Part shown: in pieces, positions 3,561 to 31,870 of the stretch | Layout: the number at the start of each line of letters is the position of its first letter | Numbering within the stretch: the first letter of the stretch is position 1 | The notes under the pieces: model-generated | The model's database searches: none | Seen by the model: the letters and a program-made list of their open reading frames with translations, nothing else | What the model was told of the DNA's origin: nothing | Made by a program: the position numbers and the translations under genes | Assembly (NCBI RefSeq): GCF_900095195.1 | Contig: NZ_LT606950.1 | Coordinates: forward strand, 997,207-1,029,206 | DNA: 32,000 nucleotides | Direction of reading: 5' to 3' | From: Polynucleobacter necessarius | GTDB lineage: Bacteria > Pseudomonadota > Gammaproteobacteria > Burkholderiales > Burkholderiaceae

Positions 3561-4397
3561 ATGAATAGCGTATTTACTGCAGAGAAAGATATCCTTGGGA
3601 TGCGAGACGCTGGCCGCTTGGCAAGCGAAGTTTTGGACCATGTAGCGCCCCATGTCAAAGCCGGCGTCACCACGGGTGAACTGGATCGCATTTGCCATGA
3701 ATACATGTGCGATATCCAACAAACTATTCCTGCTCCACTTAACTATCAACCCCCGGGTTACCCACCCTTTCCAGCATCCATTTGCACCTCAGTGAATGAT
3801 GTAATCTGCCACGGCATTCCTGGGGACAAAGTTCTCAAAAACGGTGATGTAGTCAATCTAGACATTACTGTCATTACACAAGATGGTTATTACGGCGATA
3901 CCAGTCGCACGTTTATGGTTGGTGAAGTCTCCGTAATGGCAAAACGACTTACCCAAATTACATTCGAATGTATGTGGCTGGGGATTGCCCAAGTTAAACC
4001 GGGTGCATCCCTAGGTGACATTGGTCACGTGATTCAAACGCATGCTGAAAAAGCTGGTTACTCTGTTGTGCGAGAATACTGCGGTCATGGAATTGGCAAG
4101 GTGTTTCATCAAGATCCCCAAATTCTTCATTACGGTCGACCCGGCGCCGGTGAAAAATTAGAAGCAGGCATGACTTTTACGATTGAACCCATGATTAACG
4201 CTGGCAAACGCGATATTCGCACCATGCCCGATCAATGGACTGTTAAGACCAAAGACCGCAGCCTCTCTGCGCAATGGGAGCACACTCTATTAGTGACGCA
4301 AACGGGTGTTGAGGTATTAACTTGGTCTGAGGGTAGCAATCCACCGCCAGATTGCGTCAAAGGTTTGAACTTCAGACCATCTTCTATTGCCGCCTAA
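3561..4397 (+). CDS. map: type I methionine aminopeptidase
   Basis: The sequence runs [15 protein letters not shown]...ICHGIP...VNLDITV...YCGHGIG...FTIEP...WEHT and includes the metal-ligand residues. The ORF opens at 3507. The ATG at 3561 gives the N-terminal length usual for Map. Confidence 0.9.
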
Positions 4398-4401
4398 TTT
4401 C

Positions 4402-6999
4402 ATGGGTCAGTCTTTAGTAGTTAACACGATTACAGATGCGGTTACTCTTCGTGCCGCTCGAGAGAAGGCGTATATCGAGTTTAAAAGTTCGCAAGCTGTT
4501 GGAAAACTGACCAAGCAACTTTCCAAGTTAACCGACCATTTGCTGTCGCATCTTTGGCAAGAATGCGGGCTTAATAATGAGGCTACTCTAGTTGCTGTTG
4601 GGGGCTATGGCAGAGGCGCGCTCTTTCCCTACTCTGATATTGATATCCTCATCTTGCTTCCAGCCAAGATCAAGACTGCCGAATCACTGTCAAAACGCGT
4701 AGAACAATTTGTTGCCCGTTGTTGGGATACGGGCCTGGAAATTGGCTCCTCGGTCAGAACGGTTGCAGAGTGCATCTCTGAATCGGAACAAGACATCACT
4801 GTTCGCACATCGCTATTAGAGGCACGCTTACTTTGCGGCCAACAGAAACTGTTTAAAGAGTTTTCCGTTGCATATGAAGCAGCCATGGGTCCTAAGAACT
4901 TCTTTCAAGCAAAGTTAGCCGAGCAAATTCAGCGGCATTACAAATACCAAAATACCCCCTACTCTTTAGAGCCTAATTGCAAAGAGAGTCCGGGCGGATT
5001 GAGGGATCTGCAAGTAATCTCCTGGGTCAGCAAGGCGGCATTGCTTGGAAATACCTTTAAAGATCTCAATGAAGTAGGTCTTGTCACACAGCGAGAGTTA
5101 ACTGAGCTCAATCGCAATCAGCGTTTTTTGGAAACGCTTCGAACCAACCTCCATTTGCTCGCGGGAAGACGTCAAGATGTCATCGCATTTGACTTGCAAG
5201 CACCTCTTGCACAGTCCATGGGCATCGAGACCGACTCATCCCGCCAAGCAAGCGAAGCCATCATGCGTCGTTATTACTGGGCAGCTAAAGCGGTTACCCA
5301 ACTCAATGATGTTCTCTTACAAAATATTGAGGCTTTGCTGTTTCCACAGGAATCGAAAACGATTTTGCCCATTCCAGGCGAAGGCAATGCTCATTTTGTT
5401 GAGCGTCAGGGCGTACTCGATATTTCTGACCCCCAGCTTTTTCAAAAGCATCCCGAACAAATTTTGAGGACCTTCTTGGTATTTGCCAAAACACCAAGTG
5501 TGAAGAGTCTTTCAGCAACGATTTTTAGAGCGCTCTACAACGCTCGTCAAAAGATGGATGCCAAATGGCGCTCCAATCCGATTAATCGGGCTTTATTCAT
5601 GGAAATTCTCCAGCAACCAGAGGGTGTTAGCCGAGCATTTCAACTCATGAATCGAAGCAGCGTGCTTGGACGTTACCTGCCCGCATTTAGAAAAATTGTG
5701 GGCCAAATGCAGCATGACCTGTTCCACGTCTATACGGTTGATCAGCATATCTTGATGGTCTTGCGCAATGTACGTCGCTTTATGACGCTTGAGCATACTC
5801 ATGAGTTCCCCTACTGCAGCAGTTTGATTGCGCACTTTGAAAAGCCTTGGCTCATTGTGATTGCAGCACTCTTTCATGACATTGCCAAAGGACGTGGTGG
5901 AGATCACTCACAACTTGGCAAAGCTGATATGCGTAAGTTTGCCAAGGAACATGGTCTCGATAAGAAAGACACTGAATTATTGGCTTGGCTCGTTGCAGAG
6001 CATCTCAATATGAGCCAGGTTGCTCAAAAGCAAGACATCACCGACCCAGATGTCGTGCGTGCCTTTGCCAAGAAGATGGGGGACGAACGTCATTTAACAG
6101 CTTTGTACCTGCTAACAGTGGCCGACGTTCGTGGCACCAGCCCTAAAGTGTGGAACGCTTGGAAAGGCAAGTTGTTAGAGGATCTCTATCGCGCAACACT
6201 GAGAGTTCTGGGTGGAGCAAAACCCGATGCTTCTTCAGAGTTGGCACAGCTTCAAGAAGAATCGAGAGCAAAACTGCGTCTCTATGGAATCAATGATGAG
6301 TCCTATGAAGATCTTTGGAAACAGCTGGATGTTGCGTTCTTTTTGCGACAGGATTCTTCCGATATTGCCTGGCTGACGCGCCATCTCTATAACAAGGTCA
6401 CCAGTGACCAGCCGATCGTGAGAGCGCGACTTTCGCCGATTGGTGAGGGCTTGCAAGTAGCGGTTTATATTAAAGATCAGGAAGATCCATTCGCCAGAAT
6501 TTGTGCCTATTTTGAGCGACATGGTTTCTCAATCTGGGATGCACGCATTCATACTACCCGCCATGGCTACGCGTTGGATACCTTCCAAATCTCTGGCAGT
6601 AACTTAGTCGATGGAGGTGGCAGGTATCGCGACATCATTCAATTAGTAGAATTTGAACTCACGGCAGCTCTCACGAATGCTGAGCCATTACCGAAACCTA
6701 GCATGGGGCGCCTCTCAAGACAGTCGCGGACGTTCCCGATTCAACCGCGTGTTCACATGGTTCCAGACGATCGTGGACGCTATTACACGCTTGCGCTATC
6801 AGCGAGCGACCGCACCGGGCTGCTGTGCACCATCTCTCGGGTATTGGCAAAACATCAGGTATCAATCCATAGCGCCAGAATTAACACTCTTGGTGAGCGA
6901 GTTGAGGATGTTTTGCTGCTAGACGCTGCCAACTTGGGCAAGAATCCTAAATTACAGATTCAACTAGAGACAGAGTTACTTGAGGCTCTAAGCGCTTAA
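4402..6999 (+). CDS. glnD: bifunctional [protein-PII] uridylyltransferase/uridylyl-removing enzyme
   Basis: The ORF is about 865 aa. It has the nucleotidyltransferase motif [19 protein letters not shown], the HD domain [13 protein letters not shown] and two C-terminal ACT-like repeats. The track start at 4387 is a TTG. The first ATG is at 4402. Confidence 0.93.
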
Positions 7000-7008
7000 T
7001 CAAAAGCG

Positions 7009-9033
<2,025 letters not shown>

Positions 9034-9124
9034 CTAGCTAAAGAGTCTGCTAGCGGTACTCGAACCAGCAGGGACGCCAGATCGCTCGAGATTGGCGTAA
9101 AGCCCATCTAGGTGTTGGCGAATA

Positions 9125-10089
9125 CTAATCGACCGCACCTTCACTTAGGTTAATGCCATTGTCATCTACCAGACGTCCGTTGGCGGCTTGGGCAATCTCG
9201 ACACCTTCAGCCAGCATTCTTTCAAAAGCGCGTTCTTCTTGCGCGACCAACGGAACTTCTAGCAACAAGGTAAGTTGAGTCACTGGCTTGCTGGGATCAA
9301 GATCAGTGCTGTTAAATATCAAGTTTCCATTGCTATAAAACTCGTATTGCCTACCACTGCGTGCTAATTTAAAGCCACGCTGACGCATGAGCGCATCAAA
9401 ATTACCCCAAGGGCATGACTCATCAAATAAGACATTGATACTCAGTTGAATATCGCTCTCAGCAGCCATAGCATCGAGTTCTTTAGCGCTCTTAAGCATG
9501 GTATTTACGCTTGGCATATCAATTTGGGAGCCTAAGGTATCCGCTAAGGCCTGCGCACGGGATCAGAAATCCGACAACTCAATCACGCCAATAGGGCCCC
9601 GACGACTGGCCAACTGAATGGCCAACTGCAAATCTGAATAACGTGAATCTGGGTGTAACTCTTCCCAGTCTTCTGCCACATCAATATTGGCATTTAAACT
9701 CTCACAGCTCCAGCGCGCAGCAGATGTAGTCTGTAAATCATTCCAAGTATTGATCTCTTCCAGAATTTCAGCACCACCAATGCTCTCGTCAAAACGCAAT
9801 GTGATGACGCAATCAATACGAGGGTCAATCGTAAACTTTTCTGGCGCAGTATTCACCGTTAAGGAAGCATCACCGAAACCAGGCTCAGTGCGCCCACTCG
9901 TATCGGCATCGGCAAATCCTTGACCAAAACTGGGCTCACGAGCGGAGCGCTCATCCGCAAAAAGTTTTGCTCTTTTGCCTTACGACGAGCGCGCGAATAC
10001 TTGAAATTGATAAAGGCTACGGATACCAAAATCAGCAGTCCAATGACCGCCAATGCGAATTGCAAATTAGACAAACCCAACATCGTCAT
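9125..10089 (-). pseudogene. zipA: cell division protein ZipA, disrupted by one frameshift and one in-frame TGA
   Basis: Three consecutive minus-strand ORFs cover the locus. 10107..9859 has an N-terminal TM helix LQFALAVIGLLILVSVAFINF followed by RARRKAKEQ. 9856..9563 and 9517..9125 hold the ZipA C-terminal-domain-like sequence (LLLEVPLV...RAFERMLAEGVEIAQAANGRLVDDNG). The last two share one frame and are separated only by the TGA at 9565..9563. The smc-zipA-ligA synteny is conserved in beta/gammaproteobacteria. Confidence 0.75.
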
Positions 10090-10107
10090 GATTTGTTCTA
10101 CGTACAC

Positions 10108-13100
10108 TTAGGCGGCCTCCACCATTGACACAGCAGATGCAATATCCACTGCCACAATTCTGGAGACGCCCTGCTCTTGCATGGTGACGCCAATCAACTG
10201 ATGTGCAATTTCCATTGTGATCTTGTTGTGCGAAATAAATAGGAACTGGGTCTTATCTGCCATTTTGGCAACGAGTTGCGCATAGCGCAAGGTATTCGCA
10301 TCATCCAATGGTGCATCCACCTCGTCCAGCAAGCAGAATGGTGCGGGATTTAATAAGAAGAGTGAGAACACTAGGGCAATCGCGGTCAACGCCTTCTCTC
10401 CGCCTGAGAGCAGATAAATGCTGCTATTTTTCTTGCCAGGCGGCTGCGCCATCACTTGGACGCCAGAATCCAAAATTTCTTCTCCGGTCATGACCAGCTC
10501 GGCATGTCCACCACCAAACAATTCTGGGAACAGTTTGCCGAAGTGTCCATTAACCTGATCAAAGGTTCCTTGCAATAAGTCGCGGATTTCTGCATCAATC
10601 TTCGCAATCGCATCAGTCAAGGTTTGCATAGCTTCATTCAAGTCAGCCGATTGCGCATCCAAGAACTGTTTACGCTCTCGAGAACTTGCCAACTCATCCA
10701 AGGCTGCCATATTGACTGGACCCAGAGACTGAATTTCACTATTGAGGCGATTTACCTCGGATTGCAAAGCACCCACTTTTAGATCTGGACTAAAGTTAGC
10801 CTCTAAAGCGGTTAAATCGGCTTCAGCATCTGATAGTAGCATTGCAAATTGCTCGTAATTCAGGCGAGCAGCTTGTTCACGTAACCGCAAATCTACTACT
10901 TTGTCGCGCATTGGCTGCAAGCTTCGCTCAATCTGCATGCGCGCTTCATCCGCTTCACGCAGTTGATGCAGTAATGCATCTTGTTCTGTGCGGGCATTAG
11001 CCAGCGCAGCTTCACGTGCACTACGCGCCAATAACAATCCCTGAAGCTTCTCTTGCGCTTCCTCATCACTCAGCGAGGCCAACTCTTGAGTAGCCTGATC
11101 ATGCTTATCCTGAATCTCCATGATCTGAGTACGAGCCGTACTTTGATCGCGTTGCAAATCAGCAATACGTTGTTGCAAAGCGCGGGTAGCAAATGCTGCC
11201 TCTTGTGCCGCCATCTCAGCAACTCGCAATGCTTCGCGCAAACGATCGCGCTCGAGCGTGCTGGTTTCTAATGTCTGCTGGGCTGCAGTCAGCGCATCCA
11301 GAAGACCCTGCTTAGCTTGTTCAGACTGGGCGACGTCGTCCGTAGATTGCTCTTGATTTACCGCTAATTGCTCAATTTGTTGGCGCAACTCACTCAATTC
11401 ATTCTGAATTTGTGCAGCACGCTGATTGTATTGCTCTTCAGCCTGCGTTAACTGCATTCTTTCGACTTCAAAACCATGCGCTTCTTGAACTGCTTGCTCG
11501 GCAGAAATGCGCGCTTGTTCGGCAACCTGATGTGCAGCTTGATAATTGGCGACACACTGATCTAGCTCACCTTGCAACTCGCTTTGCATTAGCTTTTGCG
11601 CACGCAATTGCTTCTCTAGACTTTCCATCTCCTGAGCGCGCGCTAACATACCCGCTTGCTCTGAGTCAGCAGCATAAAGCTGCACACCCACACGACTAAC
11701 TAAATGCCCTTGTTGCGTTACAAAAGCACCGCCTGCAGGTAACTTCTCACGACGGTGCAAGGCATCCTCTAGGCTAGAGGCGATGTATATATTGTCCAAC
11801 CACTCTTGCAGTACGGATGTGAGTCTTGGAGCGCCAGCACTTTGAACACGACTTAATAGCGGTGTGAAATCCGCAGGAGCTGAAGTATGCGCAGGACTAA
11901 TTTCCTCTGTCAGCAAAATGGCCAGACGACTTGGAGGCGCATCGTTCGCCAACGCCAGGGTCTCTTGCACACTCTTCGCAGTTACGGCAGCCAAGCGCTC
12001 ACGCAAAACAGACTCTAACGCAGCCTCCCAACCACTCTCAACTTTGAGCTCCTGCCAAAGGCGTTTACTTTCTTTTAGACCCTTGTTTTCTAGCCATGGT
12101 CCAATTTTGCCTTGCGCCTGTACACTCGCTTGTAGAGCAGTTAAGGCAGTCAGCTTCGCTTCGGTTTGTGCCAACTCTTGATTGGCTGTTTGGATTTTTT
12201 GTTGGGCAGTGTTACGCGCCTCATCCGCTGCTGGAACACGTTGCTGCGTTTCACTAGCGCGTTGCTTGATTTCTTCAACCTTACGCTGTGCCATGGCTTG
12301 ACGGTCAATCGCCATTTGCAACGCTTGGGCATCCGGCCTACGCATTCCCTCTAACTCACCGGTTAAGCGTGATTCGCGCCCTTTCAACTCATCTGACTGC
12401 GCAGACAAGGCGCGCATACGCTCACCTAAACTCGCCAATCGTTGTTCAATCGCAGCCAAACTATCGCGTGCCGCATTAAGGTCTCGTGAGGCGGATTGAT
12501 AGCTTTCTTCACGACTAGGCATTTGTTCTTGTAAGCCGGTCAAATTTGCCAACAAGGATTGTTCTTTTGCAGCAGCCTCACTTAACTCATGCTCCGCTGT
12601 GCGTTGCGCTTGCGCTGCATCCGTTTCTTGCACTGTCCAACGTTGTAATTGTGCTTGCAAATCTTGTGTTTGTTGCTGCAAACGCTGACGCGCTTCTTGT
12701 ACGTAATGAATCTGAGATTCAACCTGACTCACATCTGAATTGGTTTGATACAACTCGCCTTGAGCCTCTGAAACTTTGTCTTGCAATGCATATTGTTGAG
12801 TACGCATTGTTTCGAGCTCTGCCTCTGCATGGCGCAGCTTTGCTGTCTGCTCTTCAAGGCCTACTTGAGTGTTCCGAATGCCGTTTGCATGGCGCTCTTG
12901 CTCTTTGCCGACCTCAGTCTGACGCACAAACCACAACAACTGTTGCTGCGATTTCATTTGCGTAGAGAGTTCAGCGTGACGCTCTGCGACGGTCGCCTGC
13001 TTCTCCAAGCGAGTTAGCTGTTGATCTAACTCACGCAAGATATCTTCCACCCGCGTTAAGTTCTCAACCGCATCCTCTAAACGCGCTGCAGTTTCTTTGC

Positions 13101-13629
13101 GACGCTCCTTGTATTTAGAAACACCTGCAGCTTCTTCTAAGAACACGCGCAATTCTTCGGGTTTTGCTTCTAAGATGCGATTGATGGTTCCTTGACCGAT
13201 GATGGCGTAACCTCTTGGACCCATACCAGTGCCCAAGAAAATATCTTGAATATCTTTACGGCGCACTACTTGATTGTTGACGTAATAACTAGAGTTACCA
13301 TCACGCGTCAACACACGTTTAATACCCAATTCTGTAAAGGCGCTCCATTGGCCTTGCGCGCGTCCTTCAGAATTATCAAAAATAAGTTCTACGCTGGCTC
13401 GACCCGATGGCTTACGTAATCCAGAACCATTAAAAATCACGTCCTGCATAGACTCGCCACGCAACTCACTGGCGCGTGACTCACCTAAAACCCAACGCAC
13501 TGCGTCAATAATGTTCGACTTTCCGCACCCGTTGGGACCCACAACACCAATGAGCTGGCCAGGCATTCCAAAATGGGTGGGATCGACGAAAGACTTAAAG
13601 CCGGAAAGTTTGACGGATTTCAGTTGCAC
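10108..13629 (-). CDS. smc: chromosome segregation protein SMC
   Basis: The 1173-aa ORF has Walker A GPNGCGKSN, long coiled coils with a central hinge, the signature LSGGEKALTAIAL and Walker B FCLLDEVDAPLD. The start codon is a GTG. Confidence 0.95.
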   Translation of the reverse strand: MQLKSVKLSGFKSFVDPTHFGMPGQLIGVVGPNGCGKSNIIDAVRWVLGESRASELRGESMQDVIFNGSGLRKPSGRASVELIFDNSEGRAQGQWSAFTELGIKRVLTRDGNSSYYVNNQVVRRKDIQDIFLGTGMGPRGYAIIGQGTINRILEAKPEELRVFLEEAAGVSKYKERRKETAARLEDAVENLTRVEDILRELDQQLTRLEKQATVAERHAELSTQMKSQQQLLWFVRQTEVGKEQERHANGIRNTQVGLEEQTAKLRHAEAELETMRTQQYALQDKVSEAQGELYQTNSDVSQVESQIHYVQEARQRLQQQTQDLQAQLQRWTVQETDAAQAQRTAEHELSEAAAKEQSLLANLTGLQEQMPSREESYQSASRDLNAARDSLAAIEQRLASLGERMRALSAQSDELKGRESRLTGELEGMRRPDAQALQMAIDRQAMAQRKVEEIKQRASETQQRVPAADEARNTAQQKIQTANQELAQTEAKLTALTALQASVQAQGKIGPWLENKGLKESKRLWQELKVESGWEAALESVLRERLAAVTAKSVQETLALANDAPPSRLAILLTEEISPAHTSAPADFTPLLSRVQSAGAPRLTSVLQEWLDNIYIASSLEDALHRREKLPAGGAFVTQQGHLVSRVGVQLYAADSEQAGMLARAQEMESLEKQLRAQKLMQSELQGELDQCVANYQAAHQVAEQARISAEQAVQEAHGFEVERMQLTQAEEQYNQRAAQIQNELSELRQQIEQLAVNQEQSTDDVAQSEQAKQGLLDALTAAQQTLETSTLERDRLREALRVAEMAAQEAAFATRALQQRIADLQRDQSTARTQIMEIQDKHDQATQELASLSDEEAQEKLQGLLLARSAREAALANARTEQDALLHQLREADEARMQIERSLQPMRDKVVDLRLREQAARLNYEQFAMLLSDAEADLTALEANFSPDLKVGALQSEVNRLNSEIQSLGPVNMAALDELASSRERKQFLDAQSADLNEAMQTLTDAIAKIDAEIRDLLQGTFDQVNGHFGKLFPELFGGGHAELVMTGEEILDSGVQVMAQPPGKKNSSIYLLSGGEKALTAIALVFSLFLLNPAPFCLLDEVDAPLDDANTLRYAQLVAKMADKTQFLFISHNKITMEIAHQLIGVTMQEQGVSRIVAVDIASAVSMVEAA

Positions 13630-15845: not shown

Positions 15846-16742
15846 ATGGACCCTGAGCCTTCACAAGCGATGACCGTCAATCAATGTATTGACCAAATTA
15901 CGCAGAAATTAGAAGCAGCCAATTTGCATTACGGTCATGGCGCAATTGATGCCAACAGCGAAGCGTTATGGATCGTGAGTAAACAACTTGATCTAAGCCC
16001 ATCGGAAACGCTCGATCACCTGGATCAGACACTGTCACCCGACAAGCACCAAAAATCGTTTGCTGTTGCAGACCAACGCATTTCAACCAGAAAACCCTTG
16101 GCCTATATTTTGGGTGAAGCTTGGCTCATGGGCGTACCGTTCTTTTGCAGCGAGCAAAGTATTGTTCCCCGTTCCTGGATCGCGGAACTCATTGTGGATG
16201 GCTCATTAGAGCCTTGGCTACCTGCTGATGGCAATGTATTAGATCTATGCACTGGCAATGGCTCTTTAGCAATCTTGCTTGCCTTGTCTTGTCCAGACAT
16301 TCATGTCAGTGCGTGCGATATTAGTTTGCCAGCTCTATCTGTTGCGGCGCGTAATGTAGATCGCCACAGCCTAAGCTCGCAAATCGATCTTTTAGAGGGG
16401 GATCTTTGGGAAGCCTTGCCTGAGCCTAATGAGGACAATCTCTTTGATCTCATCATCTGCAACCCGCCCTATGTGAACGCAAATTCTATGGGTAAACTGC
16501 CCGCCGAATACCTGGCAGAGCCAAGCTTGGCACTTGCTGGCGGAGAGGATGGCATGGATCTGATTCGCAGAATTATTGCGCAAGCCCCGGATTATCTATC
16601 CGAACGTGGCGCCCTCTTACTTGAAATTGGTAATGAGTATGAGAACTTCAAAAAAGCGTTTCCGCAAATTCCGGTGATTTGGATGGAAGTGTCGGCCGGC
16701 GAAGAGCAAGTTCTTCTGATACAAGCTGAAGATTTGCGGTAA
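15846..16742 (+). CDS. prmB: 50S ribosomal protein L3 N5-glutamine methyltransferase
   Basis: The 298-aa ORF has the SAM-binding VLDLCTGNGSLAI, the NPPY motif (ICNPPYV) and a PrmB-type N-terminus (LHYGHGAIDANSEALW). Confidence 0.85.
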   Translation: MDPEPSQAMTVNQCIDQITQKLEAANLHYGHGAIDANSEALWIVSKQLDLSPSETLDHLDQTLSPDKHQKSFAVADQRISTRKPLAYILGEAWLMGVPFFCSEQSIVPRSWIAELIVDGSLEPWLPADGNVLDLCTGNGSLAILLALSCPDIHVSACDISLPALSVAARNVDRHSLSSQIDLLEGDLWEALPEPNEDNLFDLIICNPPYVNANSMGKLPAEYLAEPSLALAGGEDGMDLIRRIIAQAPDYLSERGALLLEIGNEYENFKKAFPQIPVIWMEVSAGEEQVLLIQAEDLR

Positions 16743-16760
16743 CTAATAAATAATCGGTAA

Positions 16761-18125
16761 TTAGCTAAGTTCTGCAGCTACAGCAATTGCCTGATCGATT
16801 CGCTCCACTGGAATTACTTTTAAGCCAGCGATCTTGGTCTTTGGCATATTCGCTTTTGGGATGACCGCTACGGTAAAGCCCAATTTAGCCGCTTCTTTAA
16901 GTCGCTCTTGACCACGAGGACAAGGCCGAATTTCCCCAGCCAAGCCAACCTCACCAAAAACAATCAACCCTTTTGGGAGGGCACGATTGCGAATCGAGGA
17001 TTGAATTGCCAATAATACCGCCAGGTCAGCTGCAGGCTCAGAAATTTTGACACCACCAACGGCATTCAAGAATACATCTTGATCAAAGCATGCTACTCCG
17101 GCATGGCGATGCAATACCGCCAAAAGCATTGCTAAACGAGCCTGCTCAAGACCTACCGCAAGGCGACGCGGATTTGGCACATGCGCAGTATCCACCAGCG
17201 CTTGAATTTCTACCAACAGCGGCCTGCTACCCTCTTGCGTGACCAGCACACAAGCACCTGGCACCATTTGCTCATGCTGCGATAAGAAAATTGCCGAAGG
17301 ATTGGTGACGCCACGCAATCCTTTTTCAGTCATCGCGAATACGCCAAGCTCATTGACCGCGCCGAAACGATTTTTAATAGAGCGAATCAAGCGAAATGAT
17401 GAATGTGTATCGCCCTCAAAGTACAACACGGTGTCCACAATATGTTCCAGTACGCGTGGTCCTGCTAAATGCCCATCTTTCGTGACATGACCTACCATCA
17501 ATACACAGATCCCACTCGCCTTTGCGGCTCTCGTCAGTTGCGCAGCACATTCGCGCACTTGTGCTACTGATCCTGGAGCGGAACTGAGCACCTCAGAATA
17601 TAAAGTCTGTATCGAATCCACTACCAATACCTGGGGCTTAACCGTATCCATGATGGAGATTAATTTCTCCAACTGAATCTCTGCTAAGACCTCAAGCTGT
17701 GGAGCATTTAGCGCAATCCGCTTGGCACGCAACGCAATTTGCGCAGCAGACTCTTCACCGCTGCTGTAAAGCACATTCATGCCGGCAGCACTCATTTCTG
17801 CAAGGGCTTGCAATAGTAATGTTGACTTACCGATTCCTGGGTCCCCGCCTAACAACACCACGCCACCAGGAACTAAACCGCCACCCAATACGCGATCAAA
17901 TTCTTCTACACCTGCACTAAAGCGGGGCAAGTCTTCTGCGGTAATTGCTGAGAGCTTTTGCCTTGATAAGGATTGCGCCAAACCCTGAAAACGCGAATTC
18001 GAAGTGGTTTCTGGCAAACCTTCTTCCATGGTGTTCCACGCCTGGCAGGAAGGACATTGTCCCTGCCATTTAGCAGAGGTGCCACCACAGGATTGGCAGA
18101 TATAAACCGTTTTGACTTTGGCCAA
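16761..18125 (-). CDS. radA: DNA repair protein RadA/Sms
   Basis: The 454-aa ORF has the C4 zinc finger CQSCGGTSAKWQGQCPSCQAWNT, Walker A GDPGIGKST, the KNRFG motif and a Lon-like C-terminal domain. The start codon is a TTG, with an in-frame TGA 13 codons upstream. Confidence 0.95.
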   Translation of the reverse strand: MAKVKTVYICQSCGGTSAKWQGQCPSCQAWNTMEEGLPETTSNSRFQGLAQSLSRQKLSAITAEDLPRFSAGVEEFDRVLGGGLVPGGVVLLGGDPGIGKSTLLLQALAEMSAAGMNVLYSSGEESAAQIALRAKRIALNAPQLEVLAEIQLEKLISIMDTVKPQVLVVDSIQTLYSEVLSSAPGSVAQVRECAAQLTRAAKASGICVLMVGHVTKDGHLAGPRVLEHIVDTVLYFEGDTHSSFRLIRSIKNRFGAVNELGVFAMTEKGLRGVTNPSAIFLSQHEQMVPGACVLVTQEGSRPLLVEIQALVDTAHVPNPRRLAVGLEQARLAMLLAVLHRHAGVACFDQDVFLNAVGGVKISEPAADLAVLLAIQSSIRNRALPKGLIVFGEVGLAGEIRPCPRGQERLKEAAKLGFTVAVIPKANMPKTKIAGLKVIPVERIDQAIAVAAELS

Positions 18126-18157: not shown

Positions 18158-18667
18158 TTAATCAAGCTGTGTGCCGGCTTTGTTTTCTTGTGCACGCTTA
18201 GGGGCGTCTTTACGGCGCTGTTCTAGATCAGCCGCTCTTGCTGCAGCAGCCTTCTGTTTCTCGTTAAACTCGCGCTGATTATCAGCACGTTCAGCTGCTT
18301 TTGCAGGGGAAGCACGTTCAGCAGCGCGTTTTTGATCCTCTTGATCTTTAATGCTTTTGCGCAAATTACGTTGCACCTCATGCAAAGCCCGCTCCTGCTC
18401 ACTAATTGGATCAACCTCTTTACGGTATTGCGCACGTGCGTTACGCAAGCAGTAATTCACCCAGTAGTTTGCATAACACTCCGATGAGGCTTTGCCCCAG
18501 CGGTATTTTACCCAATCGCGTTGCAACTCTAATTCCGCCTCAATCTTATCGAGCCTATCCAGTTCCGCTTCCTCTGCGGGTGTAGCGAGAGCCACCCCAC
18601 TGAAAGCATTAACCAGCAAAAAGATTCCAATAAAGACCTTGGATCGGAATGAAAGAGGTTTTCTCAA
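18158..18667 (-). CDS. hypothetical exported protein
   Basis: The 169-aa ORF has a signal-peptide-like N-terminus MRKPLSFRSKVFIGIFLLVNAFSGVALA. It also has a Cys pair (SSECYANYWVNYC) and a K/R/E/A-rich tail. Its TTG start overlaps the kup stop (TTGA). I recognise no family. Confidence 0.55.
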   Translation of the reverse strand: MRKPLSFRSKVFIGIFLLVNAFSGVALATPAEEAELDRLDKIEAELELQRDWVKYRWGKASSECYANYWVNYCLRNARAQYRKEVDPISEQERALHEVQRNLRKSIKDQEDQKRAAERASPAKAAERADNQREFNEKQKAAAARAADLEQRRKDAPKRAQENKAGTQLD

Positions 18668-20610
18668 ATCTCTACCTTCGCGCCCAACTCAACCAAACGG
18701 TTCGCTGGAATCCTAAAGAAGTTCGATTGACGACCTGCATTTTGATACATCCAACAAAACAAACGCTCACGCCAGAGAGCCATTCCTGGAATAGCAGATG
18801 GAACAATAGTGTCGCGTGACAAGAAGAATGAAGTATTCATCATATCAAACTTCATATCAAAGTGAGATTCAATCAACTGAATGATAGTTCCCATATCCGG
18901 AGTTTCTTTGAAACCATAGATTGCCCGCACAACAAAAATATTGCCGCCCAAATCCTTAAGGGTGATGCGATCTTGATCGTTGACATAAGGCACATCCCAA
19001 ATGCTGACTTTCAAAAAGAAGACTCTCTCATGCAGGACGTGGTTGTGCTTAAGGTTGTGCAAAAAAGATACTGGTAAATAGTCGACATGGGCTGTTAAAA
19101 ATATCGCGGTACCCTCAACGCGATGCGGCGGATGTTGGAGTAAGGCGCCAATAAAGCTGCTTAGTTGAATACCTTCATCCATTGCACGTTTTCGCAATAT
19201 TTGACGCCCCCGATACCAAGTAATGAGGCAGGTAAAGCGCAGCAATCCCAAAGCCAACGGATACCATCTACCATCCTTGATCTTAATAAGGTTAGCTGTC
19301 CAAAAGGCAAAATCCACCAAAAAGAAAGATGCAGTAATGGTGGCAACTAGGAAAACATTCATCTTCCACTCTCGAAACATCACCACGGCAAGCAAGATTG
19401 TTGTTATCAACATCGTCGATGTAACCGAAATGCCGTATGCAGCAGAGAGGTTAACAGACTCTCGAAACTCAATGAGGGTAACAACCACCACAAAGAGCAA
19501 GGCCCAGTTGACAATAGGAATGTAAATTTGCCCTTGTTCAGAATCTGAGGTGTGAAGAATATTCATGCGAGACATGAAGCCCAACAAAATTGCCTGACTG
19601 ACTAGTGAATATGCACCAGAAATTACTGCCTGAGATGCAATCACTGTCGCCACGGTAGCCAAGCCCACGGTTGGCCACAAAGCCCACTCTGGAACCATCA
19701 AGTAAAAAGGATTTTTAATAGCCTCCGGGGTTCGAGAGCAGTAAAGCGCCCTGCCCCAAATAATTGATCAGAAGACTCGGCAAAACAACCAGCAGCCAAG
19801 CATAACGAACAGGAGTGCGACCAAAATGGCCCATATCCAAATAGAGCGCTTCAACGCCAGTAACAACAAGTACAACAGCGCCCATTACGATATAGGCAAT
19901 TGTGAGATGTAGCGCCACAAAGTCGATGGCATATAAAGGATTAACAGCAGCAACAATTTCTGGTGCGTCACCAATATTGGCAATACCGAGAGCCGCCAAC
20001 GTCACAAACCAAGCTAGCGTGATAGGGCCAAATAATTTACCAACTGCTGCAGTCCCATATTTTTGAATCAAAAACAGAGCTACTAAAATAATTAAAGAAA
20101 TTGGAATAATGAATTTATGCAAACCCGGGGTTGCAATTTCAATACCCTCAACAGCAGATAAAACTGAGATTGCTGGGGTGATAACGGACTCACCCAAAAG
20201 CATGCAAGCACCTAACATGCCCATAATCATGAAAAAGAAATAGCCTTTTGACTTGCTATCAAATGAACGAAGTGCCAACGCCATGAGAGAAAGCACCCCG
20301 CCCTCACCTTTATTGTCAGCCCGCATCACAAATAAAACATACTTCACTGTAACTACAAGAATTAGAGCCAAAATCATCATTGAGATCACGCCAAATAATG
20401 CTTCTTGCGTGAAAGCAATGCCATGATGCGGGTCGAAACGCTCCTTAAGAGCGTATAAAGGGCTTGTGCCAATATCCCCGAACACCACACCAATCGCGGC
20501 GAGCATCATGACTCCAAGGCTCTTTTCTTTTTATGCTCACCGCCAGGTCCGCTGACCTGCACAGGATTCAAAAGGGTTGAACTTGAAAACTCGGGATTAC
20601 TAATTGACAT
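18664..20610 (-). pseudogene. kup: KUP/HAK/KT potassium uptake protein, frameshifted
   Basis: The N-terminal ORF 20509..19715 contains [20 protein letters not shown]. The C-terminal ORF 19701..18664 (VPEWALWPTVGLATVATVIASQAVISGAYS...) is in another frame. The frames rejoin across a C4 run (plus-strand GGGG 19727..19730). A likely original start is the ATG at 20610 (MSISNPEF...GGEHKK). It is in a third phase relative to the N-terminal ORF, across the A-rich tract 20521..20535. Confidence 0.85.
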
Positions 20611-24987: not shown

Positions 24988-27900
24988 ATGAATAAGCCCC
25001 TCGACATCCGAGAAGTTTTGGTAGATCAAGCGTTGCTTGCAAAACGTCTAAAGCAAGAGACATCGGGCGAGGTGATGATCGATCGTGCTAGTCGATGTCG
25101 TTATGCTACCGATGCCTCCATTTATCAAATCATGCCGGTAGCAGTGTTTGTGCCAAAGACAGCTGACGATATTGCAACTGCTATTCAGATTGCTGCGGAA
25201 CTTGGTGTACCAGTGCTACCTCGTGGTGGAGGCACTAGTCAATGCGGTCAAACGACAGGTGCAGCATTAGTTATTGATAACAGCAAATACTTTCGAAATA
25301 TTCTGGATCTCAACATTGACCAAGGCTATGTAGAGGTTGAACCAGGCCTCGTGCTGGACCACCTCAATGGATCCTCAAACACATAGTCTTTGGTATCCCG
25401 TAGACGTCTCTACCGCTGCGCAAGCCACCATTGGTGGTATGGCTGGGAATAATTCTTGTGGAAGTCGGTCAATTGCCTACAGAAATATGGTGCACAACGT
25501 ATTAGGGATTGATGCCTGGTTAGCTGACGGCCAAATTGCCCAGTTTGGCAACTATGCGAATAGTTCGGGCCCCGCCAAGCAATTGGGTGATGTTGTTAAA
25601 ACTCTAGCCAACACCCTGCAACCCGAAATCGAAGCGCATTTTCCGAAGGTCCTAAGACGGGTAGCAGGTTACAACTTGGATATTTTTCATCCACAAAGTG
25701 AACTGCCCTATACCCGAGATGGCAGCGTGAACTTAGCGCACCTTTTAGTCGGTAGCGAAGGCACGCTGGCTTACTTTAAATCCCTCAAGCTTAAGTTAGC
25801 CCATTGCCAAAACATAAAGTGCTCGGCATTGTGAATTTCGCCAGCTTTTATAAAGCGATGGATGGCGCCCAACACATTGGGAAGCTCGGACCCATTGCAG
25901 TAAAGTTGGTAGATCGCACCATGATTGATCTCGCGCGTAGCAACCCCAGATTTCAAAAGACGATTGAGACGGCGCTAATAGATCCTAGTACCCAAACTCC
26001 AGAGGCAATTTTGTTGGTCGAGTTTTCAGGGGAAGATCATGCGCCTCTATTAGAAAAACTCTGCGCACTTCAAGAACTCATGGGCGATCTTGGCTTACCC
26101 GGACCTGTTGTTCCTATGCCCGACGTGACTCCTCAAAAGAATTTATGGGAAGTACGCAAAGCCGGATTGAACATCATGATGAGCCTCAAGGGGGATGGTA
26201 AACCAGTCAGCTTTATTGAAGATTGCGCCGTGCCACTAGAGAACTTGGCGGAATATACACAAGCACTAACAGATGTTTTTGCTAAATATGGCTCACGCGG
26301 TACCTGGTATGCGAATGCCTCTGTGGGCACACTTCATGTGTGGCCCATGTTGGATATGCGTAGAGATGGCGCGCAAAAGATGCGTGCTGTTGCTGAAGAA
26401 GCATCAGCGCTAGTGCGCAAATACAAAGGCGCCTACAGTGGCGAACATGGTGATGGCTTATGTCGAGGTGAGTGGATCTCTTGGCAGTTTTGTCCGAAAA
26501 TCACGCAAGCCATCGCAGAAATTAAACATGCGCTTGATTCCAAGGGACTCTTTAATCCCGGCAAGATCATTGATCCGCCAAAGATGGATGTTGCAAGCAA
26601 CTTTCGCTTTCCACCTAGCTACAAAGTCATTCCACTACAACCTGCGCTCGATTGGTCTGCTTGGAATGTGCAAAACAATCCTGTTACTGAAGAAACCTCA
26701 GCACCAGAAACTGGTGGCGATCCCGCTATGGGTTTAGCCAGAGCAGTTGAGATGTGTAACAACAATGGCCACTGCCGCAAATTTGATGCAGAAGTCATGT
26801 GTCCTAGCTATCGGTTACTCGGGATGAAAAACATCTGACTCGCGGCAGGGCAAATGCCTTACGTTTAGCCCTATCCAATCAACTCGATATCCAAGAGGAA
26901 TCTTCACCTTTGGGTAGCGATGCCATTAAAAAAGTAATGGAGCTCTGCGTCAGTTGTAAGGCTTGTCGCCGCGAATGCCCCACCGGCGTCGATATGGCAA
27001 AGATGAAAATTGAGTTCTTATCAGTCTATAAAAAACGGGTTGGACACTCGCTCAGAGATTTAGCAATAGCCTATCTTCCCAAGTATGCAGACACGATCAG
27101 TAGGATTCCACTTCTGCCTGCCCCACTCAATCTTCGCAATCACTTCAAACCCATTGCCACGTTACAAGAATGGATCATGGGCATCTCCGCTCAGCGGAGC
27201 CTGCCAACCTGGAGAGCCTCTACATTCTGGAATCAATCTGACTCATCACAAGACATCAATTCAGTCCCGAAGCACTGCAAACCCAAAAGGGCGTAGTACT
27301 TCTAGCGGATACGTTTAATGCGTAAGCAGCTATTCGCGTCTTAAAAGCTGCTGGATACACTATTCACATCCCTCACAAAAGCCAAAACAACGCAAAAACG
27401 AATTCGCAGAGCGAATGTTCAAAAGAGTTTTGCTGCGGTCGAACCTATCTAGCGGCAGGAAAGGTTGATAAAGCCAAAGAAACCTTGGATGAATTGGTTG
27501 ATCACTTGGTGCCATCTGCCCAACTCAACATCCCTATTCTTGGGCTTGAGCCATTGTGTTTATTCACATTAAAAGATGAAGCGCTGGTAATAGGCTTCGG
27601 TGAGCGCGCGATAACAGTTTCTCAACACGCACAACTCCTAGAGGAATTTTTAGTTAAAGAAGTCAAAGCAGGAAAGCTTTCGCTAAACCTCAAATCTGCC
27701 AACAAGTCTGTATTATTTCATGGTCACTGCCATCAAAAGCCTTTTGCTGCGGTAACACCCGCAATGGAATTACTCAAACTCATTCCAAACGCCAATCCAA
27801 CACTCATTGAGTCCTCATGTTGCGGTATGGCGGGTAGTTTTGGCTATGAGCCTGAACATATTGAAGTCTCGAAACAAATGGCAGAGGCAAGTTTATTACC

Positions 27901-28030
27901 CACGATTCGCAAAGCGTTCGCCTCTTGGGTAGTGGCTGATGGCACAAGTTGTCGCCATCAAATTGCAGATGGTGCGCAAAAGGATGCTGTGCATATCGCC
28001 AGAATATTGGCAGCACATTTATCAGAGTAG
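24988..28030 (+). pseudogene. YdiJ-like FAD-linked oxidase / 4Fe-4S / CCG-domain dehydrogenase (about 1010 codons), multiply frameshifted
   Basis: Five collinear ORF fragments sit in phases 1,2,1,0,2. The FAD-binding PCMH domain is at 24988..25834 (PRGGGTSQCGQT, GGMAGNNSCGSRS). The FAD-oxidase C-domain is at 25804..26838. The ferredoxin motif CVSCKACRRECP is at 26910..27296. The CCG motifs FCCGRTY and SSCCGMAGSFGY are at 27326..28030. An in-frame TAA lies at 27323..27325. AGGAGA lies 7 nt upstream of the ATG at 24988. Confidence 0.85.
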
Positions 28031-28400: not shown

Positions 28401-28500
28401 TACCCAATGACCCCTACTTTTTTACGGACGAACTTACGATCAATGAAGTAGGCTAAGGTGCCACCAACTAGACCTGCAGTGAGCAAACTGGTATCACACC
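28400..28500 (-). pseudogene. azlC: probable 3'-terminal remnant of azlC
   Basis: Minus-strand translation ending at the TAA 28402..28400 gives ...DTSLLTAGLVGGTLAYFIDRKFVRKKVGVIG*. This is a TM helix plus a basic tail. Its stop overlaps the azlD ATG as in azlCD operons. No AzlC body lies upstream. Confidence 0.4.
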
Positions 28501-29009
28501 CGACAACCGTTATGACAAACGACCCGGCCTTCCGTGAACAGTTAGACACCATTGGGAATTACGCTAACCTGACCAATGTGGAGCGCAATGCGCTCGTAAT
28601 TAATGGGGCGAGCTTTGTACCGCTGAGCTCAGGCAGTGCATTGCATGGCTTACCAGGCGATTATTTGAGCCCTAGCCGCTTTATTCGCGCACTCTTTCTA
28701 ACCAAGTCGGTGCCAACCAATAAAACTACTGCCCAACAAACCAATACTGCTTGGCATAGCTTGGGTAGCTTTGATATTCCTCCCGGTGCGATCAGTTTTC
28801 CTGCTACTAATGCCTATGGCGGCGGTGCAGGTGGCGTTGAAATCACGGAGTGGACGGTAGTTGCTGACAATAAAAATATGATGTATTACGTCAAGATGTT
28901 TGATAACACCAATGTTCAGGCGTTTGATCTCAAGAAAATTGATCCGAATGCAAATGGCGTTCAATTCATTAACTTGGATAGACTTCAGACTTATATCAAT
29001 TTAAATTAA
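28458..29009 (+). pseudogene. choloylglycine hydrolase-family (linear amide C-N hydrolase, Ntn) gene, 5'-truncated
   Basis: The ORF encodes only the C-terminal half of the family (VMTNDPAFREQL..., GLPGDYLSPSRFIRALF, EITEWTVVADNKNMMYYVKMFDN). The N-terminal nucleophile Cys and the signal region are absent. Confidence 0.75.
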
Positions 29010-29021
29010 GGATCGCATCCC

Positions 29022-30132
29022 ATGGGCTCGACTACACCTACCGTTGCTGAATATGTCATCCAGCGTTTAGCAGAATTAGGGATTGATCGAGTCTTTTGTG
29101 TTCCTGGTGACTATACGTTTCCGTTTGATGATGCTATTGAAGTGTCCAATAGCGTTCAGTGGGTTGTTTGTGCTAATGAATTAAATGCTGCATATGCTGC
29201 TGATGGCTACGCCAGGATTAACGGCGTAGCGATGTTGACAATAACCTATGGCGTAGGGAAGTTGAGTGCAATCAATGGCGTCATGGGTGCTAAAGCGCAG
29301 CGACTACCAGTTTTTCACTTAGTGGATGCCCCCAGTACACGAATTCAGAAGCAGGGATTAATTACTCACCATACTTTGGGGATGGCGTTTATAACAACTT
29401 TCGCCAACTTTCCGAGGCGGCTTGTTGTGTATCAACGTCGTTGACGCCTGACAATGTAATCGACGAAATGGAGAGAGTTATCCGTGAGGCGCTGCGCTTG
29501 AGTGCGCCCGCCTATATTTCTGTTCCTATGGATTTAGAAACAATGCCGTTGGCAATGCAACGATATTCTTGCTTGTATCTTCTCCAGAATGAAATCGATA
29601 GAGGCACTCAAAGCAGCAGGATCACCCTGAGCACGAACGATTTGCGCAAGCGGTCGACCTTTTACAGGGTTGCCGATGATAGGCATATGTGACGAATTAC
29701 GGTTTGACTTCAGTGTTGTATGATTTTTTGAATAAATCCAATATTCCGTTCGCAACCACCCCAATGGATAAGGGCGTCATCAGCGAGGCGCATCCAAACT
29801 ATTTGGGTATTTATAACGGCATAAACTCAAGCCCAGCGAATCTTAAGGAGCAGATTGAAGGCGCTGTATGGAGTTGAAAACGTTCTGAGTGAAATTGGCC
29901 CGTCGTATGATGATTTGGCGAAATGGAATTATGCACAAGTACCTACTGCTATGGGGCGCAACACCTGGTTCACTGCTCGCGTCAGTACTGTTGGGAATTG
30001 GATGCAACCATCGAAAAGGCGAATGCATTTGATGGTGCTTCGTATATTGAGGTCATGATTCCAACCTCGGAAAGCCAACCGTTACCAATCGCCATTCAGA
30101 ATCAAATCTACAAGAGTAATATTCCTAATTAA
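29022..30132 (+). pseudogene. indolepyruvate/phenylpyruvate/pyruvate decarboxylase-family ThDP enzyme, frameshifted and internally deleted
   Basis: The N-terminal PYR domain reads VPGDYTFPFDD...CANELNAAYAADGYAR...HHTLG. The middle domain reads NIPFATTPMDKGVISEAHPNYLGIYNG. The C-terminal end reads SYDDLAKWNYAQVP...RVSTVG / ELDATIEKANAFDGASYIEVMIP. These pieces are spread over at least four phases. The locus is about 370 codons against about 550 expected. The GDG...NN ThDP-binding motif region is missing. Confidence 0.8.
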
Positions 30133-30186
30133 TTGCGGGTTTATCAAAACAAAAGGTGAGGATTCACCAAAAGAGAAAGCGTTTCA

Positions 30187-31870
30187 ATGAAGATATTTCC
30201 AAAATGGGTTGGCCTAAGCGTAGCACTTGCATCTTTGCAAGTCATGGCAGCAAATTCCAGCGTCTATTTCAATGGCGATATTTTGACAATGGAGGGCAGT
30301 AGCCCAAAATATGTCGAAGCTGTTGTTGTGAAAGATGGAAAGATCGCATTTACGGGTAATTTGCAGGATGCGATGGGGCAGGCCGGTACAAATCGCACAC
30401 TCCAAGATCTCAAAGGGAAGACCTTATTGCCTGGGTTTATTGATACTTGGGGCCATTTTACATTAATTGCGCAAAATACCTTGGGAGTCAATCTGGCGTA
30501 CTTCTCTAATAAGCCGCCTCAAACCACTTAAGAACTTTTTAGTCGTTAAAAAACGAAGCAAGGCCATTTAATGGTTGGATTATTGGCACAATGCCGATGC
30601 TTTTCTGAAAGACGGCCCTTTAACGATTGCGCAACTTGATCAAGCCTTTCCGAATGAACCGGTTTTTGTAAACAATATTTCAACATTGACCGGCATCGTC
30701 AATACGGCTGGCTTGCGTAAATTAGGAATTACAAAAGCGACTAAAGCAGTGCAGGGAGCCATCCCAGTAGATCCAAAAACCGGCAAGCTTACTGGCGAAT
30801 TGATTGGTATGCTAAATGTCAATGCGACAGCAAAAGTATTCGGTAAATACTCGCCCGCTCTAACGCTCGAGACCTTTCGCAAGGCTGAAGAAATCTACAC
30901 ATCGTGTGGTTTTACAACTGCGCAAAGTTATGAGACTACAGTAGAAGATATTTGCAATATGCGCCAAGCAGTAGAGCGCAGCATGGTCAATATTGATTTA
31001 ATTGCTTTGCCAACATATCAAGTGGTTGACCAGTTGCTCGATACAAATCCAAATTACCCCTTTGGAATTTATACCAATGGTGATGGCGGTTTTAAGGTGG
31101 CAGGTATTCTGGTGTCAACAGACGGCGCGCCACAATTGCGCTTAGCTGTTTTCAGTAAGCCTTACATTGATACCGCTGGATTTCCGAAAGATTGGCGGGG
31201 GATTGCTTTTATCTCACAAGACATGGTCAATCACTATGCAAAACTGGCTTACCAGAAAAACATTCAATATTTTGGATGCTCCAATGGCGATGCTGGCATC
31301 GATATGACCTTATCCGCCCTCTCAAAAGCGCGGCAGGAGACCGGCATTACCGAAAATCGTCGATCGATCATCGCTCACTCCTTTTTTGTTCGAGATGATC
31401 AGCTGGATCAATAAAAGCTAACAAAGTCATCGCCCAATTCATGATGAACCATATCTGGATGTATGGTGATGTCTACCGTAAGGTTCTGGGTGATGAGCGA
31501 GCAAGCAATATCAATCCGTTGAAATGGGCGCAATCAAAAGATGTCGAGTTTGGAATTCACAATGACACTCTATCAATCTGGCCCAAGCGCCTTATTCACG
31601 ATGTGGACATCTGTTAATCGTAAGACCTATGGAGGCGATACTTTAGGACCGGATCAACGAGTAGATGCTTACACAGCATTGCAAGGCTTTACAACGAAGG
31701 CGGCCTACGAATATAAAGAGGAAGATAAGAAGGGAAGTATTACAACTGGAAAATTAGCGGATTTTGTCGTGCTCGATCGCAACCCCTTGAAAGTCAATCC
31801 AATGGAGATTAAGGACATTCAGGTGCAAGAAACGATTAAGAATGGCAAGTCTCTCCACTCTCGTCCCTAA
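30187..31870 (+). pseudogene. amidohydrolase-3 family (YtcJ-like metal-dependent hydrolase) with signal peptide, multiply disrupted
   Basis: The fragments are 30187..30531 (MKIFPKWVGLSVALASLQVMA, LLPGFIDTWGHF), 30543..30590 (SLKNEARPFNGWIIG) and 30575..31414. They continue with 31414..31575 (KANKVIAQFMMNHIWMYGD...VEFGIHNDT) and 31541..31870 (KGSITTGKLADFVVLDRNPLKV). The phases run 1,0,2,1,2. An in-frame TAA lies at 30529..30531. Confidence 0.8.

Follow-up and report, generated by a model that had tools for sequence, protein, structure and literature searches.

Polynucleobacter necessarius, an endosymbiont of Euplotes, carries a probable recent pseudogene of a divergent zipA between intact smc and ligA

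Depletion of the cell-division protein ZipA in Escherichia coli leads to multinucleoid filaments. Among Betaproteobacteria, ZipA of Burkholderia cenocepacia (BCAL2097) binds both FtsZ and FtsA, as established by two-hybrid analysis and co-sedimentation (PMC7761207). The ZipA of Neisseria gonorrhoeae was negative in two-hybrid assays and showed no interaction with the divisome (PMC5727935). In the literature covered here, the essentiality of ZipA is not established for Betaproteobacteria. Reduction of the division machinery has been described in ‘Ca. Kinetoplastibacterium’, an endosymbiont of trypanosomatids, where FtsA and most of the divisome are gone and division involves a dynamin-like protein of the host (PMC13109935). 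The name P. necessarius is reserved for obligate endosymbionts of Euplotes, which are unculturable and possess genomes of approximately 1.6 Mb with many pseudogenes (PMC5018217; review PMC11253213). Their cells are elongated and contain several nucleoid-like structures (PMC5018217). Our literature search, outside which lay the original genome descriptions by Boscaro (2013 and 2017), returned no paper naming both P. necessarius and zipA.

We have analysed a stretch of 32,000 nucleotides (hereafter, the window) from a P. necessarius chromosome that is represented by a single contig of 1,550,368 bp. The zipA slot is located on the minus strand, with smc upstream and ligA downstream, and no single ORF covers the space between them. 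On the E. coli map, too, zipA and ligA are neighbours. The locus comprises the following features:

9034..10107, minus strand: the whole zipA pseudogene, 1074 nt; three minimal edits give an ORF of 357 aa, alignable with orthologues over its whole length
10107..9859, minus strand: ORF of 82 aa, the N-terminal zipA piece
9856..9563, minus strand: ORF of 97 aa, the second zipA piece
9517..9125, minus strand: ORF of 130 aa, the third zipA piece
9144..9034, minus strand: ORF of 36 aa, the C-terminal zipA piece, in a separate frame
10003..10059, minus strand: N-terminal membrane anchor FALAVIGLLILVSVAFINF, residues 17-35, a hydrophobic stretch that is still in the frame of the start codon
9109..9448, minus strand: region homologous to the FtsZ-binding domain, approximately residues 221-333 of the repaired protein, from Pfam ZipA_C and the family profile against PDB 9iue, 1f46 and 1f47
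9034..9129, minus strand: C-terminal coding remnant left stranded (ISIRQHLDGLYANLERSGVPAGSSTASRLFS, followed by TAG), from ORF 9034..9144 and the alignment of orthologues; its frame differs from that of the fragment before it
10108..13629, minus strand: smc, intact, 1173 aa; its TAA stop abuts the zipA GTG at 10107; dN/dS against the related locus L001 is 0.018
7009..9024, minus strand: ligA, intact, 671 aa (RefSeq WP_114662739.1, LigA); dN/dS 0.024; starts 9 nt past the true zipA stop

Both flanking genes are uninterrupted and of full length, as had been reported in a preliminary description of this DNA. The smc product also measures 1173 aa in the sister assembly L084, a 20-kb Logan contig from run SRR32119647, which encodes a 197-aa protein that clusters with the 130-aa fragment at the 90% level. 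Translation of zipA may start at GTG 10107 or at ATG 10089. A DNA alignment with orthologues places its true stop at TAG 9036-9034. In RefSeq, three fragments of the gene are listed as separate proteins (WP_231968546.1, WP_231968545.1 and WP_231968544.1). A scan of the zipA region for promoters and terminators revealed no promoter-like site and nothing notable.

Alignment of the window DNA with five orthologous loci mapped three lesions:

9959..9969, minus strand: lesion 1, loss of 1 nt from the CAAAAC-TTTTT run (A4-C-T5), codon ~49; from the DNA alignment, with the same deletion in L084
9563..9565, minus strand: lesion 2, TGA at codon 182 of 357, in place of the Cys of SDFCSRAQ; from DNA and protein alignments
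9130, minus strand: lesion 3, insertion of one G (+1), codon 327; from the DNA alignment, absent from L084

At lesion 1, the window reads GAGCAAAACTTTTTGCGG (9972-9955), and the two nearest relatives are one base longer there. The N-terminal frame runs through ...FKYSRARRKAKEQ and then out of frame to TAA 9861-9859, the homologous peptide resuming in the next phase, so the deletion parts the membrane anchor from the remainder of ZipA. This agrees with the phase change by a 1-nt deletion, just after the anchor, that had been described before. The site of lesion 2 is TGC or TGT (Cys) in all five aligned orthologue DNAs, and the Cys is invariant in the orthologue proteins (11 of 11). Lesion 3 lies inside the last helix of the FtsZ-binding domain: GTC-ATTAGT of the orthologues has become GTC-G-ATTAGT, which creates a premature TAG (9127-9125) and removes this helix together with the conserved C-terminal tail. 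Intact orthologues end in ...SEAAVISIRQHLDGLYANLE(K/R)SG(I/V)PAGSSTASRLFS; the window encodes that peptide in a different frame, in ORF 9144..9034, and the conceptual protein obtained by joining the pieces is about 36 residues short at the C-terminus compared with intact proteins. The preliminary description had the gene broken twice and ending at 9125. Both of its breaks are present, but the inserted G at 9130 had been missed, and the supposed end is the stop created by it, the remnant continuing to 9034. As the -1 and +1 indels cancel each other, the pseudogene has the length of its closest intact orthologue (1074 nt), and undoing the three edits yields an uninterrupted frame of 357 codons. 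In its present state, the gene does not read through from the anchor to the end of the FtsZ-binding domain, being interrupted by the -1 frameshift, by the TGA and by the +1 frameshift. Lesions 2 and 3 are outside homopolymers, and both are known from the window's assembly alone. The peptide patterns DFCSRAQA and RW[MS]CEGLN are both destroyed in the zipA of the window.

A search with the conceptual protein retrieved hundreds of Polynucleobacter proteins of 350-358 aa, the best of which was 92% identical, and the repaired ORF shares 92% identity with intact orthologues of 357 aa. Pfam ZipA_C (PF04354) matched the last fragment with 29.2 bits and the repaired protein with 27.6 bits (cut-off 23); the match spans profile positions 69-121 only, likewise in intact orthologues. 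The equivalog cut-off of TIGR02205 (septum_zipA), 119.65, was not reached (14-22 bits, intact orthologues included); residues 14-45 at the N-terminus of an intact orthologue align with positions 1-32 of that model. A PDB search with a profile of 11 close Polynucleobacter orthologues gave no match. The family search, in which a profile was compared with 1.8 billion representatives, identified 1229 members at E<=0.001, mostly matching end to end. The profile of 71 diverse members matched full-length E. coli ZipA (9iue) with E=4e-21 in two collinear stretches, one covering the anchor (profile 1-80 aligned to E. coli ZipA 2-107) and the other the FtsZ-binding part (209-333 aligned to 194-322). Against the ZipA domains in PDB (9iue, 1f46, 1f47), the E-value was ~1e-15, and ZipA_C was matched by all 71 diverse members. 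The features predicted from sequence are thus those of ZipA, with a single hydrophobic anchor at the N-terminus and a ZipA_C domain at the C-terminus.

Since the profile matches E. coli ZipA and ZipA_C is found in all 71 members, the family is a true, yet divergent, betaproteobacterial ZipA homologue, and not a demonstrated equivalog. The earlier assignment as ZipA-like is sustained by the Pfam alignment check that we ran, with ZipA_C above the cut-off, and by the family profile. Binding of the FtsZ peptide and membrane tethering are putative functions here, experimentally shown only for the relative BCAL2097 of B. cenocepacia (PMC7761207). A published reverse primer for the N. gonorrhoeae zipA encodes ...ALRLFS followed by the stop (PMC5727935), and gonococcal ZipA therefore has the same C-terminal tail as the present family. 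Homology to the FtsZ-binding domain starts at approximately residue 212-221, and the TGA at codon 182 is thus situated outside the domain, about 30-40 codons upstream, in a conserved middle region. The in-frame TGA at 9565-9563 had been recognised correctly and replaces a Cys, but it does not split the FtsZ-binding domain, as had been thought. A structure model of an intact orthologue (11-sequence alignment) had a mean pLDDT of 41.6, too poor to place the lesions or to search for folds. Aligned by hhalign, the middle region and the FtsZ-binding domain matched across 19 columns with E=0.079, which is at most suggestive of an internal repeat.

Full-length zipA is intact at 80 loci, which come from free-living strains or metagenome-assembled genomes. 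Two further genomes deposited under the name P. necessarius, LT606947 (1.89 Mb, L049) and LT615228 (1.83 Mb, L082), have retained it intact as well, and its loss is therefore specific to this more reduced lineage. The L082 genome has a split rseP of its own. Neither the stop nor the phase change of the window was found among the free-living orthologues examined. The best 120 full-length matches included no second zipA copy on the 1,550,368-bp contig.

Over 8.6 kb, L084 and the window show 99.0% identity, and they share the ligA-glnD junction. Its zipA shares lesion 1 exactly and is free of lesion 3. It has, in addition, two private changes: a 7-bp tandem duplication (TAGCCTT) in the anchor and a 228-bp deletion that corresponds to window positions 9747-9520 and includes the TGA site. 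A 197-aa ORF of L084 retains the complete FtsZ-binding domain together with the conserved tail. Because the same deletion occurs in this independently assembled contig, lesion 1 is real and older than the split of the two strains. After the split, the decay of zipA went on separately in each lineage. With three lesions, more than 80 intact relatives and a frameshift shared with a 99%-identical sister, the inactivation proposed in the preliminary description is upheld.

Between the window and L084, we counted six nonsynonymous changes to one synonymous in zipA (omega ~1.75) versus 28 to 26 in smc and ligA together. This is what neutral evolution would produce, but with only seven zipA changes the excess is not significant (Fisher p=0.12). 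Three substitutions private to the window, E206K, N273S and H310N, affect sites that are invariant in orthologues. Over the longer term, the picture is one of ordinary constraint: dN/dS of zipA is 0.037 against the nearest intact relative and 0.034 between two intact relatives, window-specific amino-acid changes number 11 of 355 in zipA vs 43 of 1534 in the neighbours (p=0.73), and relaxation tests against L001 and L002 (dN/dS, window-specific substitutions) revealed no zipA excess. Synonymous divergence from the nearest intact relatives is ~1. As there is no long-term excess of change, the inactivation must be recent; judging from these comparisons, zipA was apparently under normal constraint for nearly all of the divergence time and died recently. 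The dN/dS ratio is raised genome-wide, reaching 0.3-0.4 between the two close strains vs ~0.02 in the long term.

Erosion is not restricted to zipA. Roughly one in four gene slots of the window is broken, with at least five genes affected besides zipA:

20509-18664: kup, frameshifted
24988-28030: large FAD/Fe-S oxidase, in at least five pieces
CBAH gene: 5'-truncated
TPP enzyme: only scraps left
amidohydrolase: split

The window has also lost a NUDIX gene that sits between ligA and glnD both in a free-living strain and in a second P. necessarius genome.

Overall, the zipA of the window is very probably a recent, non-functional pseudogene, driven by drift, in an obligate Euplotes endosymbiont. 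The oldest datable lesion is lesion 1, which separated the anchor from the FtsZ-binding part in the cytoplasm and thereby abolished any membrane-tether function. With selection on zipA gone, the two daughter lineages decayed independently. The window lineage gained the +G frameshift, and it also carries the Cys-to-TGA change, which is undatable. In the sister lineage, the 7-bp duplication and the 228-bp deletion followed. The likely cause is drift under weak purifying selection, as is usual in bacteria confined to a host, and not selection on division, which presumably continues via FtsZ with FtsA or other anchors. Since genome-wide drift in a pseudogene-rich endosymbiont, with about a quarter of the slots broken, explains the loss of zipA, no division-specific story is needed. 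The essentiality of ZipA in E. coli is not transferable to this case, given that the homologue is divergent (21 bits vs 119.65) and that its gonococcal relative showed no interaction with the divisome. The preliminary description had further suggested a relaxed or altered control of division, which is speculation.

Several other explanations were weighed against a drift-driven pseudogene. It is very improbable that the breaks are sequencing or assembly errors in an organism with an intact zipA. The short homopolymer runs at lesion 1 (A4, T5) and the confinement of lesions 2 and 3 to the window's assembly would suit such errors, but lesion 1 recurs exactly in L084 (SRR32119647), which is ~1% different from the window and carries two further, private lesions that disable the gene, neither lesion 2 nor lesion 3 lies in a homopolymer, and broken genes are numerous elsewhere in the window, in keeping with the published description of the species (PMC5018217). 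Error is hence excluded for lesion 1 and unlikely for lesions 2 and 3. Scarcely conceivable is the production of a whole ZipA through recoding, with the TGA read as selenocysteine and the frameshifts bypassed by programmed frameshifting or transcriptional slippage. The TGA at a conserved Cys does follow the classic Sec/Cys pattern, the frameshifts (-1 and +1) keep the net length, and lesion 1 falls within an A/T run. However, no stable SECIS-like hairpin follows the TGA (MFE -12.3 kcal/mol, where shuffled sequences average -13.9, z = 0.58; folds of equal or greater stability arose in 138 of 200 shuffles), and the sequence downstream is the same as in TGC-bearing orthologues. Transcriptional slippage needs a homopolymer of about nine or more; the A4 and T5 runs at lesion 1 are too short for it, and at lesion 3 there is no run. 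Furthermore, deletion of the 228 bp with the TGA site and duplication of 7 bp in the anchor, both in L084, are unexpected for a gene that is kept functional, and the ratio of six nonsynonymous changes to one synonymous since the split also argues against it.

Improbable, too, is a gene that is split and not dead, from which one or more fragments would be made by termination-reinitiation, for example the 130-aa ORF, binding or bundling FtsZ without tethering it. Restart codons are at hand, GTG 9856 being 2 nt past TAA 9861-9859 and ATG 9517 being 45 nt past the TGA, and RefSeq annotates all three fragments as proteins. The ORF 9517..9125 holds most of the FtsZ-binding domain, and the 197-aa ORF of L084 keeps all of it with the conserved tail. 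However, the former is devoid of the last helix and the nearly invariant C-terminal tail, the private changes E206K, N273S and H310N fall on invariant sites, and the region contains no promoter-like site. A selected fragment product is disfavoured, as the two lineages keep different pieces of zipA. Also unlikely is a loss that was adaptive or consequential, with a looser Z-ring giving rise to elongated multi-nucleoid cells, or with the timing of division ceded to the host. It draws on the elongated shape and multiple nucleoid-like structures of P. necessarius (PMC5018217), on the resemblance of this form to the ZipA depletion phenotype of E. coli, and on other betaproteobacterial endosymbionts that lost Z-ring tethers and divide with a host protein (PMC13109935). 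Nevertheless, zipA is intact in LT606947 and LT615228, both deposited as P. necessarius, the morphology belongs to the species description and not to this lineage alone, the inactivation is very recent, and sequence does not tell selection from drift.

By itself, the decay of zipA reveals no new mechanism: we regard it as an ordinary young pseudogene in a pseudogene-rich genome. It adds a division gene to the functions that are being lost in a young endosymbiont, and its practical value is small. The annotation should be corrected to one pseudogene where WP_231968544.1, WP_231968545.1 and WP_231968546.1 now stand as three proteins. The window and SRR32119647 form a pair that documents stepwise decay, with a shared frameshift first and independent indels after. 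That the loss of the ZipA tether weakens autonomous assembly of the Z-ring, and feeds the elongated multi-nucleoid form or a host-paced division, is a doubtful proposition. If true, Polynucleobacter would represent a natural series of a bacterium giving up control of its own division, in which relatives with intact and with independently decayed zipA coexist. The P. necessarius group, with both intact and broken zipA, could reveal the effect of tether loss on cell length, nucleoid number and host dependence.

Compared with known systems, the ZipA of E. coli (PF04354; PDB 1F46, 1F47, 9IUE) shares with this family the single N-terminal anchor and the C-terminal FtsZ-binding domain, but has a P/Q-rich linker where the family has its conserved middle region (~residues 90-205) and is without the conserved C-terminal tail GIxAGSxxALRLFS. 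Its sequence is very divergent from the family, which scores 21 bits where the TIGR02205 cut-off is 119.65. BCAL2097 of B. cenocepacia and the ZipA of N. gonorrhoeae belong to the same bacterial class as the present homologue, and their genes, unlike that of the window, are intact. ‘Ca. Kinetoplastibacterium’ resembles the organism studied here in being a host-restricted betaproteobacterium without an FtsZ-membrane linker. Its loss is ancient, however, whereas we see a single, very young pseudogene and no sign of a take-over by the host. The closest likeness is with the pseudogenes of P. necessarius itself and of other recently host-restricted endosymbionts, which offer the same picture of small frameshifts and nonsense changes in well-preserved genes with intact housekeeping flanks. 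From other P. necessarius pseudogenes, the zipA of the window does not differ in kind; what is specific to it is the gene that has been hit and its labelling as three proteins in RefSeq.

The remnant of zipA in the window is represented in RefSeq by three separate proteins rather than by one pseudogene; one of these is named 'ZipA C-terminal FtsZ-binding domain-containing protein' and the other two are 'hypothetical'. The gene has also decayed in the sister strain L084, a contig assembled in Logan from run SRR32119647, with lesions of its own.

Window 9125-10107, minus strand: zipA remnant (RefSeq WP_231968544.1, WP_231968545.1 and WP_231968546.1)
L084 3743-4594: decayed zipA of the sister strain, 99% identical to the window

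The sister copy carries a 7-bp tandem duplication, located in the anchor, and an in-frame deletion of 228 bp; what remains is an ORF of 197 aa. This ORF keeps the entire FtsZ-binding domain and the tail.

Downstream, the stop codons of ligA and glnD are separated by 9 bp (window 6999-7009). A NUDIX hydrolase gene occupies this gap in the free-living strain L004 (6110-6604) and in L082, the locus of LT615228.1 deposited as P. necessarius (5796-6299); it was cleanly lost in both the window and L084. Another gene of L082, rseP, is a pseudogene made up of two ORFs, one 237 aa and the other 119 aa long.

Window 4387-6999: glnD, compared with L084 6629-8594
L082 (LT615228.1) 15977-17115: rseP (Peptidase_M50)

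The glnD ORF of 870 aa is still intact in the window. Over its 3' two-thirds, 13 nonsynonymous and 2 synonymous differences were counted between the two strains, which are 99% identical (omega about 1.9), and the gene may be unconstrained and heading for the pseudogene state.

Several other genes in the window are broken.

Window 18664-20509, minus strand: kup (potassium transporter), frameshifted
Window 24988-28030, plus strand: large gene for a FAD-linked oxidase/Fe-S (Fer4, CCG) oxidoreductase
Window 28458-31870, plus strand: three further decayed genes, consecutive

The frameshift in kup leaves ORFs of 264 aa (K_trans positions 2-260) and 345 aa (K_trans 269-452 plus the C-terminal domain), and what is left of the oxidoreductase gene is a series of five or more successive ORFs that lie in different frames. 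Among the last three, the choloylglycine-hydrolase-family gene is missing its 5' half, the TPP enzyme gene retains only the N domain and a scrap of the middle domain, and the Amidohydro_3 gene is split in two.

Two regions of betaproteobacterial ZipA were located on the intact Polynucleobacter orthologue P0001 (357 aa).

Window 9840-9495, minus strand: conserved middle region (P0001 residues about 90-205)
Window 9034-9080, minus strand: conserved C-terminal tail (P0001 residues 343-357)

Within the protein, DPRIDCVITLRFDE weakly resembles ESDIQLSINVLFDE (hhalign, E=0.079), a hint that a second ZipA_C-like module may make up the middle region; the quality of the AF2 model was too low to settle the point. 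Compared with ZipA of E. coli, which has neither element, the betaproteobacterial protein is distinguished by this conserved middle region and by a nearly invariant C-terminal tail, GIxAGSxxALRLFS.
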